Shown: positions 15,136 to 15,144 of the stretch, in pieces
Numbering within the stretch: position 1 is the stretch's first letter
How the letters are laid out: every line of letters begins with the position of its first letter
From: a virus
Taxonomy: Duplodnaviria; Heunggongvirae; Uroviricota; Caudoviricetes
IMG/VR virus record: IMGVR_UViG_2703718816_000002
Coordinates: 1 to 18,683 of that record
Length of the DNA: 18,683 nucleotides
Direction: 5' to 3' (one strand)
The notes under the pieces: model-generated
What the model was told of the DNA's origin: nothing
The model's database searches: none
The model's input: only the letters and a program-made list of their open reading frames with translations
Program-made: the position numbers and the translations under genes

Positions 15136-15144
15136 GGGGGGGGG
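15136..15144. repeat. homopolymeric G9 tract upstream of the AraC-family regulator gene
   Basis: Nine consecutive G (GGTGGGGGGGGGAGA), about 55 bp upstream of a TATAAT hexamer (15198-15203) and about 95 bp upstream of the regulator start codon. Confidence 0.9.

Follow-up and report, generated by a model that had tools for sequence, protein, structure and literature searches.

The stretch of DNA analysed here (the window, 18,683 nucleotides in full) carries a run of nine G ahead of an AraC-family regulator gene, and the question that it raises is whether the run changes length and, if so, whether this alters the expression of the gene behind it. The window runs from the early into the late region of a lambdoid E. 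coli prophage, in the order Q, a hypothetical ORF of 237 aa, an ORF of 65 aa, the G run, a promoter, the AraC-family ORF and three tRNA genes. The features needed for the argument are given below.

13093-13764, Q antiterminator gene (Pfam Phage_antiter_Q).
14905-15102, plus strand, 65-aa ORF, annotated in relatives as hypothetical or as a TrmB-family winged-helix regulator.
15089-15115, plus strand, hairpin resembling an intrinsic terminator (stem 15089-15106, then a T-rich tail), where the 65-aa ORF ends.
15130-15137, plus strand, Chi octamer 5'-GCTGGTGG-3', which shares its final two G with the start of the tract.
15136-15144, plus strand, G9 homopolymer, with T before and A after, as read from the letters of the window.
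15145, plus strand, the A directly 3' of the G9 run, which is C in 49/49 other sequences of a 50-sequence alignment.
15176-15203, plus strand, sigma-70-type promoter of the psr gene, with -35 ATGATA at 15176-15181, a 16-bp spacer and -10 TATAAT at 15198-15203.
15210, plus strand, putative transcription start (A), transferred from the EDL933 psrA and psrB start sites by sequence mapping.
15239-15952, plus strand, PsrB-type AraC/YdeO-like regulator gene, 237 aa (Pfam HTH_AraC and HTH_18).
15981-16232, three tRNA genes, 3' of the AraC-family ORF.

The run stands out from its surroundings. It is the only G/C homopolymer of at least 7 in the window (the runner-up is a single G6), and the G+C content around it is 40–44%. 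Under iid or first-order Markov models, about 0.04–0.05 G runs of at least 9 would be expected per window, or about 0.06 with C runs included, and the run is thus as rare as an earlier note on this DNA had claimed. Across about 694 kb of related prophage DNA, there were only two other G/C runs of at least 8. Another G9 run is found in Sakai Sp4 (L075:25314-25322), within the annotated gene for the terminase large subunit and near its overlap with the small-subunit gene; it may mark a site of frameshifting or a lesion in a pseudogene.

Several other roles for the run itself were considered and set aside. By inspection, it does not match the canonical G-quadruplex motif (four runs of at least 3 G with loops of 1–7 nt), as G9 supplies two G3 and a GG; a GGG upstream (15125-15127) is 8 nt from the G run, and four G runs would take a tract of at least G11 together with a long loop. 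The only ORF that crosses the tract (15044-15202) was rejected as a coding sequence, as it has a TTG start, overlaps the small ORF and would have its C-terminus altered by every tract length. No Rfam family matched at the G tract at gathering thresholds. An 8-nt direct repeat, TCAGTCCT (15093-15100 and 15154-15161), brackets 53 bp of DNA that include Chi and the G run; chance alone would give about 0.2 such repeats in that stretch, and it may mean nothing.

The downstream gene was identified as a PsrB-type regulator. Its product shares 99% identity with ECs2191 of Sakai Sp11, when the latter is taken from its longer start, and 90% with ECs1087 of Sakai Sp4, which was named psrA in a 2026 paper, and PsrB is itself 90% identical to PsrA according to a review (PMC10877973); together these identities make the window gene PsrB-type. 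In NCBIfam it matches YdeO best, along its full length and under the cut-off of that family. It also has the other traits of the Psr family in EHEC, namely an AraC-type HTH at the C-terminus, a likeness to YdeO and GadX, and a position between Q and the tRNA genes; psr lies between Q and the ileZ-argN-argO tRNA genes in the same order in both Sakai Sp4 and Sp11. A PsrB-type regulator activates gadE and hdeA and represses type III secretion indirectly, and PsrA and PsrB bring prophage input to the GadE acid-resistance circuit and thereby to LEE type III secretion in EHEC (PMC10877973). The sRNA HnrS, which raises psrA expression, was considered for this locus and rejected, as it is encoded among the late genes instead. 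In the Sakai annotation, ECs_2191 (L047:2769-3356) and ECs_1087 (L075:13804-14391) are genes of 588 nt. The ORF of 714 nt is favoured over these 588 nt by a mapped start site that precedes the upstream ATG by 29 nt, as well as by the RefSeq annotation of other strains.

Whether the run can influence this gene depends on where the promoter is. TTGATG was considered as the -35 hexamer, with a spacer of 19 bp; ATGATA with its 16-bp spacer was preferred. Cappable-seq start sites from EDL933 (PMC10469882, Supplementary Material 6) include 1265979, assigned to EDL933_RS06220 (psrA), and 1905245, assigned to locus 10010, an 'AraC family transcriptional regulator' (psrB), and both sites are present in every condition column of that dataset. 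Each is an A seven nt past TATAAT and 29 nt ahead of the ATG. As the start sites have this spacing, the -10 picked in the earlier note as the only good one before the regulator gene is the right one, and the tract does lie 5' of it. Relative to a start at 15210, the tract occupies -74 to -66, and its end is 31 bp 5' of the -35. Changes in length therefore cannot shift the -35/-10 spacing, and the further proposal that they alter promoter geometry did not hold up, as the tract is outside the core promoter. Among 50 sequences, the promoter and 5' UTR (15148-15241) showed two variants only, both singletons just 3' of the -10 (15207 and 15213).

Two further observations concern transcription in this region. 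A 16-nt inverted repeat (15176-15191 and 15225-15240, 81% complementary) brackets the -35 and the ribosome-binding/ATG region of psrB and could be an operator pair. In the Sp11-type prophage, another start site (L047:2110, EDL933 1904741) is seen in all conditions, 25 nt past the gene for a Q-like antiterminator and 200 nt before the small ORF. This is probably the late promoter PR', and psrB would then lie within the late operon besides having its own promoter.

We compared tract length across related prophages, a check that the earlier note had proposed, and found G6, 7, 8, 9, 10, 11 and 13 between nearly invariant flanks. When the window was aligned with four complete genomes, the flanks were invariant and the tract read G9, G11, G13, G6 and G7; Sakai Sp11 has G8 and a pig isolate G9, such that lengths of 6, 7, 8, 9, 11 and 13 were seen across six complete genomes and the window. 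A pattern scan of IMG/VR with the right flank of the window itself (AGACACC) gave no match because the A after the run is unique to the window; a relaxed flank pattern gave 42 loci (31 with G7, seven with G6, three with G8 and one with G9). The flank-pattern scan of one genome per species gave no match. Metagenome contigs carried G7 (nine), G6 (one) or G8 (one), and seven others had a non-repeat allele of invariant length. When a G11 query was run against 5,426 complete E. coli genomes, it returned G10 in OkiPb01716 and 2013C-3492, G11 in OkiPb01712 and 90-3040, G13 in OkiPb01678, several G8 and a bulk of G7; G10 and G11 were found in other prophage backbones. In the 50-sequence alignment (14750-15960), the tract is the sole recurrent intergenic indel site, the other intergenic indel being one extra T, present once, in the terminator tail.

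The closest relatives give an indication of how fast the tract changes. The prophage of the window also occurs in two Okinawa bovine isolates; between OkiPb01712 and OkiPb01678, G11 versus G13 is the one difference across 24.66 kb of prophage, and the window differs from both by 4 SNPs in 18.66 kb and by the tract. The haplotype of the window carries G9, G11 and G13, and the tract appears to act as a slippage hot spot, consistent with the view in the earlier note that it is long enough for slipped-strand mispairing. At face value, and judging from one or two events, the tract would change at about 5,000 times the average per-site rate in this prophage lineage. The E. coli substitution rate is near 2e-10 per site per generation, which would put tract change, on those same one or two events, in the order of 1e-6 per generation.

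Short alleles behave differently from long ones. The commonest haplotype, shared by 23 sequences without a difference over about 925 bp, has G7 in 21 of them and G8 in two. Among complete-genome records with Sakai-type flanks, exact G8 was found in 288, G7 in 29 (mostly O145, several O157) and G9 in 14 (including 86-24, 493/89, LSU61 and ATCC 43888). Judged by this distribution, G7 and G8 seem mostly to be stably inherited within clones, with occasional change, whereas long alleles (G9-G13) differ even among near-identical prophages. Slippage predicts such faster change in long tracts, but homopolymer sequencing error would too.

It was considered whether the exact G9+A call, and part of the long alleles, arose from homopolymer errors, the true tract having one fixed length in the lineage. 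Long G runs are generally known to be error-prone on both long-read and Illumina platforms. The 89-mer of the window has no exact match among the 5,426 complete E. coli genomes, and none of the other 49 aligned sequences shares the A at 15145. This A is a true C-to-A substitution or else a miscalled base where a long G run ends. In addition, G11 versus G13 is the sole difference between two 24.66-kb prophages that come from one study. Against this, early finished reference genomes already differ (Sakai G8 and O26 11368 G7, both of which we take to be Sanger-finished), lengths follow lineage (G7 in O145 and G8 in most O157:H7), the G9 of strain 86-24 is reproduced in three separate assemblies, non-repeat alleles never vary in length, and runs of at least 9 occur in several independent records. 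We consider it very unlikely that such errors hide one fixed length in this lineage; G11 versus G13 in the two Okinawa assemblies and G9+A in the window may nonetheless stem from long-read assembly. Consensus assemblies cannot reveal minority length variants within a culture.

The alleles without a repeat indicate where the run came from. In Sakai psrA, O55:H7 DEC5E, phage phiSTEC1575-Stx2k and the seven metagenome contigs, GGGTGTTAGC stands at the site of the G(n)C of the psrB type, and at 10 nt it has the length of G9+C. The same 10 nt are found in phiP27, though a DNA methyltransferase takes the place of psr downstream, and close variants (GGGTGTTAGG and GGGGGTTAGG) are found in Stx2a phages and in another prophage with methyltransferase cargo. 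As GGGTGTTAGC and its variants occur in both psrA-type and methyltransferase-type relatives, the poly-G is the derived state within the psrB lineage. In phages with methyltransferase cargo, the segment is the loop of a strong hairpin, GGCTGGTGGG..CCCACCAGCC (z of -4.6 and -5.3), and in psr-type sequences the same hairpin is degenerate (z of -1.1 to 0). Given this degeneration, we do not claim a structural role for it in the window.

The run also lies at the edge of a phage module. The 65-aa ORF is the left-hand module, which ends at Chi and the G tract, and it had no Pfam or NCBIfam match. Many Stx2 phages and about 1,800 E. coli genome records retain this winged-helix-like ORF with its own terminator, and the cargo 3' of it differs among carriers, being psr or a DNA methyltransferase. 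The Chi octamer is kept in every relative of this module. The roughly 1,800 genome records match the left flank as far as Chi and then diverge, and most phage records align only as far as position 15138 of the window. When the non-repeat alleles were compared, the junction between psr and methyltransferase types fell about 16 nt right of Chi, and homology with Stx2 phages and methyltransferase-cargo prophages stops at Chi or within about 16 nt of it.

The position of Chi relative to the run has a possible consequence for recombination. All positions from +1 to +7 after Chi are G in the window, such that +4 to +7 are purines, whereas the ancestral non-repeat flank has T at +4 and +5. As described by Taylor, Amundsen and Smith in 2016 (PMC5041463), cutting by RecBCD takes place a few nt 3' of Chi and is enhanced by purines at +4 to +7 and reduced by T or C there. 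The octamer is exact here, the nick would be expected inside the G run, and the poly-G flank would be more favourable to cutting than the ancestral flank with its T residues. The run might therefore be tied functionally to Chi, supplying the purines that favour RecBCD, and a nick within it would let the invading 3' end pair out of register, giving both an unstable tract and a recombination seam between phage modules. The shared two G, the retention of the octamer in all relatives of the left module and the end of homology at or near Chi fit this account. We nonetheless find it highly doubtful. The two Chi sites in the window, versus 0.47 expected, are not significant (reached in 20/200 shuffles), and the conservation of Chi may be plain descent or reflect a role as a hairpin arm. 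G at +1 to +4 is mildly unfavourable in the same study (PMC5041463), the phage has its own RecT recombinase, and such phages are described as mostly Chi-poor (PMC12315714). We treat the overlap of Chi and the run as a lead and not as a finding.

The Chi octamer reads on the late-transcription strand. On the lambda map, that orientation is active for entry at the right cos end, and by analogy the Chi at 15130-15137 would be active for RecBCD entering from the right cos end. At this same spot in Stx2 phages and prophages with methyltransferase cargo, the hairpin arms carry Chi on both strands, perfectly in L048:2535-2565 and with one mismatch in L053 at about 2831-2862.

As for what the run does, we think it probable that it is a slippage hot spot that is close to neutral and affects psrB, if at all, in a graded way, and not a classical ON/OFF switch. 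The non-repetitive 10-nt segment beside Chi, at the seam of two phage modules, gave way to poly-G in the psrB lineage, and replication slippage would then alter the length of the run, to which out-of-register pairing of a Chi-generated 3' end falling inside it may add. Change would be far more frequent than base substitution, yet slow enough for clonal inheritance of G7 and G8. At -74 to -66, outside the core promoter, the run would have at most a graded effect on psrB transcription. Such a graded effect is possible; classical phase variation at the tract is unlikely and unproven. Like a contingency locus, this one has a repeat of adequate length for slipped-strand mispairing and a repeat number that varies between conserved flanks, but the repeat is not in the -35/-10 spacer, in an ORF or at a known regulator site, none having been recognised there.

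A larger role is conceivable if tract length sets the helical phase or the distance between the core promoter and an upstream element, or alters the stiffness of the DNA, in which case slippage would produce heritable variants of psrB expression in EHEC populations. A binding site whose phase is set in this way could lie in the 28 bp that separate the tract from the terminator tail (-103 to -76), with an activator, the alpha-CTD or a nucleoid protein as candidate ligands. The tract is polymorphic amid about 200 bp of nearly invariant DNA, its G9-G13 alleles differ between near-identical prophages, and its place is in the upstream part of the promoter, a region used elsewhere by class I activators and upstream elements. 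EHEC genomes also have many intergenic homopolymers beside transcriptional regulators (survey PMC8928963). However, our reading of the sequence from -103 to -76 found no recognisable binding site there, and a CRP-like site considered at 15112-15133 amounts to a single poor half-site. Every spacing from 6 to 11, and 13, occurs in nature, and G7 and G8 are stable over hundreds of genomes. The promoter gives a start site under every condition whether the allele is G8 (psrB) or the non-repeat GGGTGTTAGC (psrA), whose spacing equals that of G9. Moreover, psrA, which has the clearer deletion phenotype (PMC10877973), has no tract. Taken together, these points make such tuning by the tract unlikely.

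We regard as improbable, too, the combined case, in which the poly-G is a true contingency element of EHEC prophages that tunes PsrB and owes its instability partly to the nick made by RecBCD at Chi. If true, a recombination hotspot would be linked to localised hypermutation of the promoter of a virulence regulator, which to our knowledge has not been described in E. coli.

As a kind, the tract is ordinary, being a polymorphic homopolymer near a promoter, and it can be placed beside known examples. The T-tract of the Helicobacter pylori sabA promoter is likewise a homopolymer 5' of the core promoter, polymorphic among strains and with a proposed graded effect; it is reportedly a rheostat-like repeat just 5' of the -35, with a measured effect on expression. 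The psrB tract, by comparison, ends 31 bp 5' of the -35 and is known from sequence. E. coli is proficient in mismatch repair, so switching at the psrB tract should be much slower than at sabA. Promoter repeats in Neisseria and Bordetella (poly-G in porA, poly-C in opc and fim, TAAA in nadA), the classical cases of phase variation in transcription, are similar in being near promoters and in changing length by slipped-strand mispairing. Most of these repeats occupy the -35/-10 spacer or separate the -10 from an activator site, and their switching rates are 1e-2 to 1e-5, whereas the psrB tract is at -74 to -66 and its short alleles are stable over hundreds of genomes. A further class is that of Ishiya and Nakashima 2022 (PMC8928963), who described EHEC intergenic homopolymeric tracts beside regulators in aggregate. 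The psrB tract fits this class exactly, being a phage-derived intergenic homopolymer found beside a regulator in type strains of O157 and O55; their survey singles out no tract by name, gives no position relative to a promoter and makes no mention of Chi. Our literature searches found no description of the tract, its length spectrum, the difference between psrA and psrB at this site or the fusion with Chi; specifically, the PsrA/PsrB literature searched has no mention of a repeat 5' of psrB or of that difference, and the part of the Chi literature consulted (PMC5041463) has none of a homopolymer fused to Chi.

If the tract does affect expression, it would be among very few simple-sequence contingency elements in E. 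coli and could help to account for the way strains differ in how they resist acid and colonise. Should it be neutral, it would be a fast-evolving marker that separates otherwise identical prophages, a trap for homopolymer assembly errors and a natural test case for whether a Chi-dependent nick in a homopolymer raises slippage.

Elsewhere in the window, Rfam matches 3' of the tRNA cluster include the sRNA STnc100 (16342-16550, plus strand, 177 bits) and the anti-GcvB sRNA AgvB (16551-16610, minus strand, 56.6 bits, just over the threshold). Further matches, to c4-a1b1, isrK and C4 antisense RNA, lie at 10698-10899 on the plus strand, just 5' of the antirepressor gene ant. This c4/isrK/ant region is a P1/P7-type immunity control region within a lambdoid prophage.
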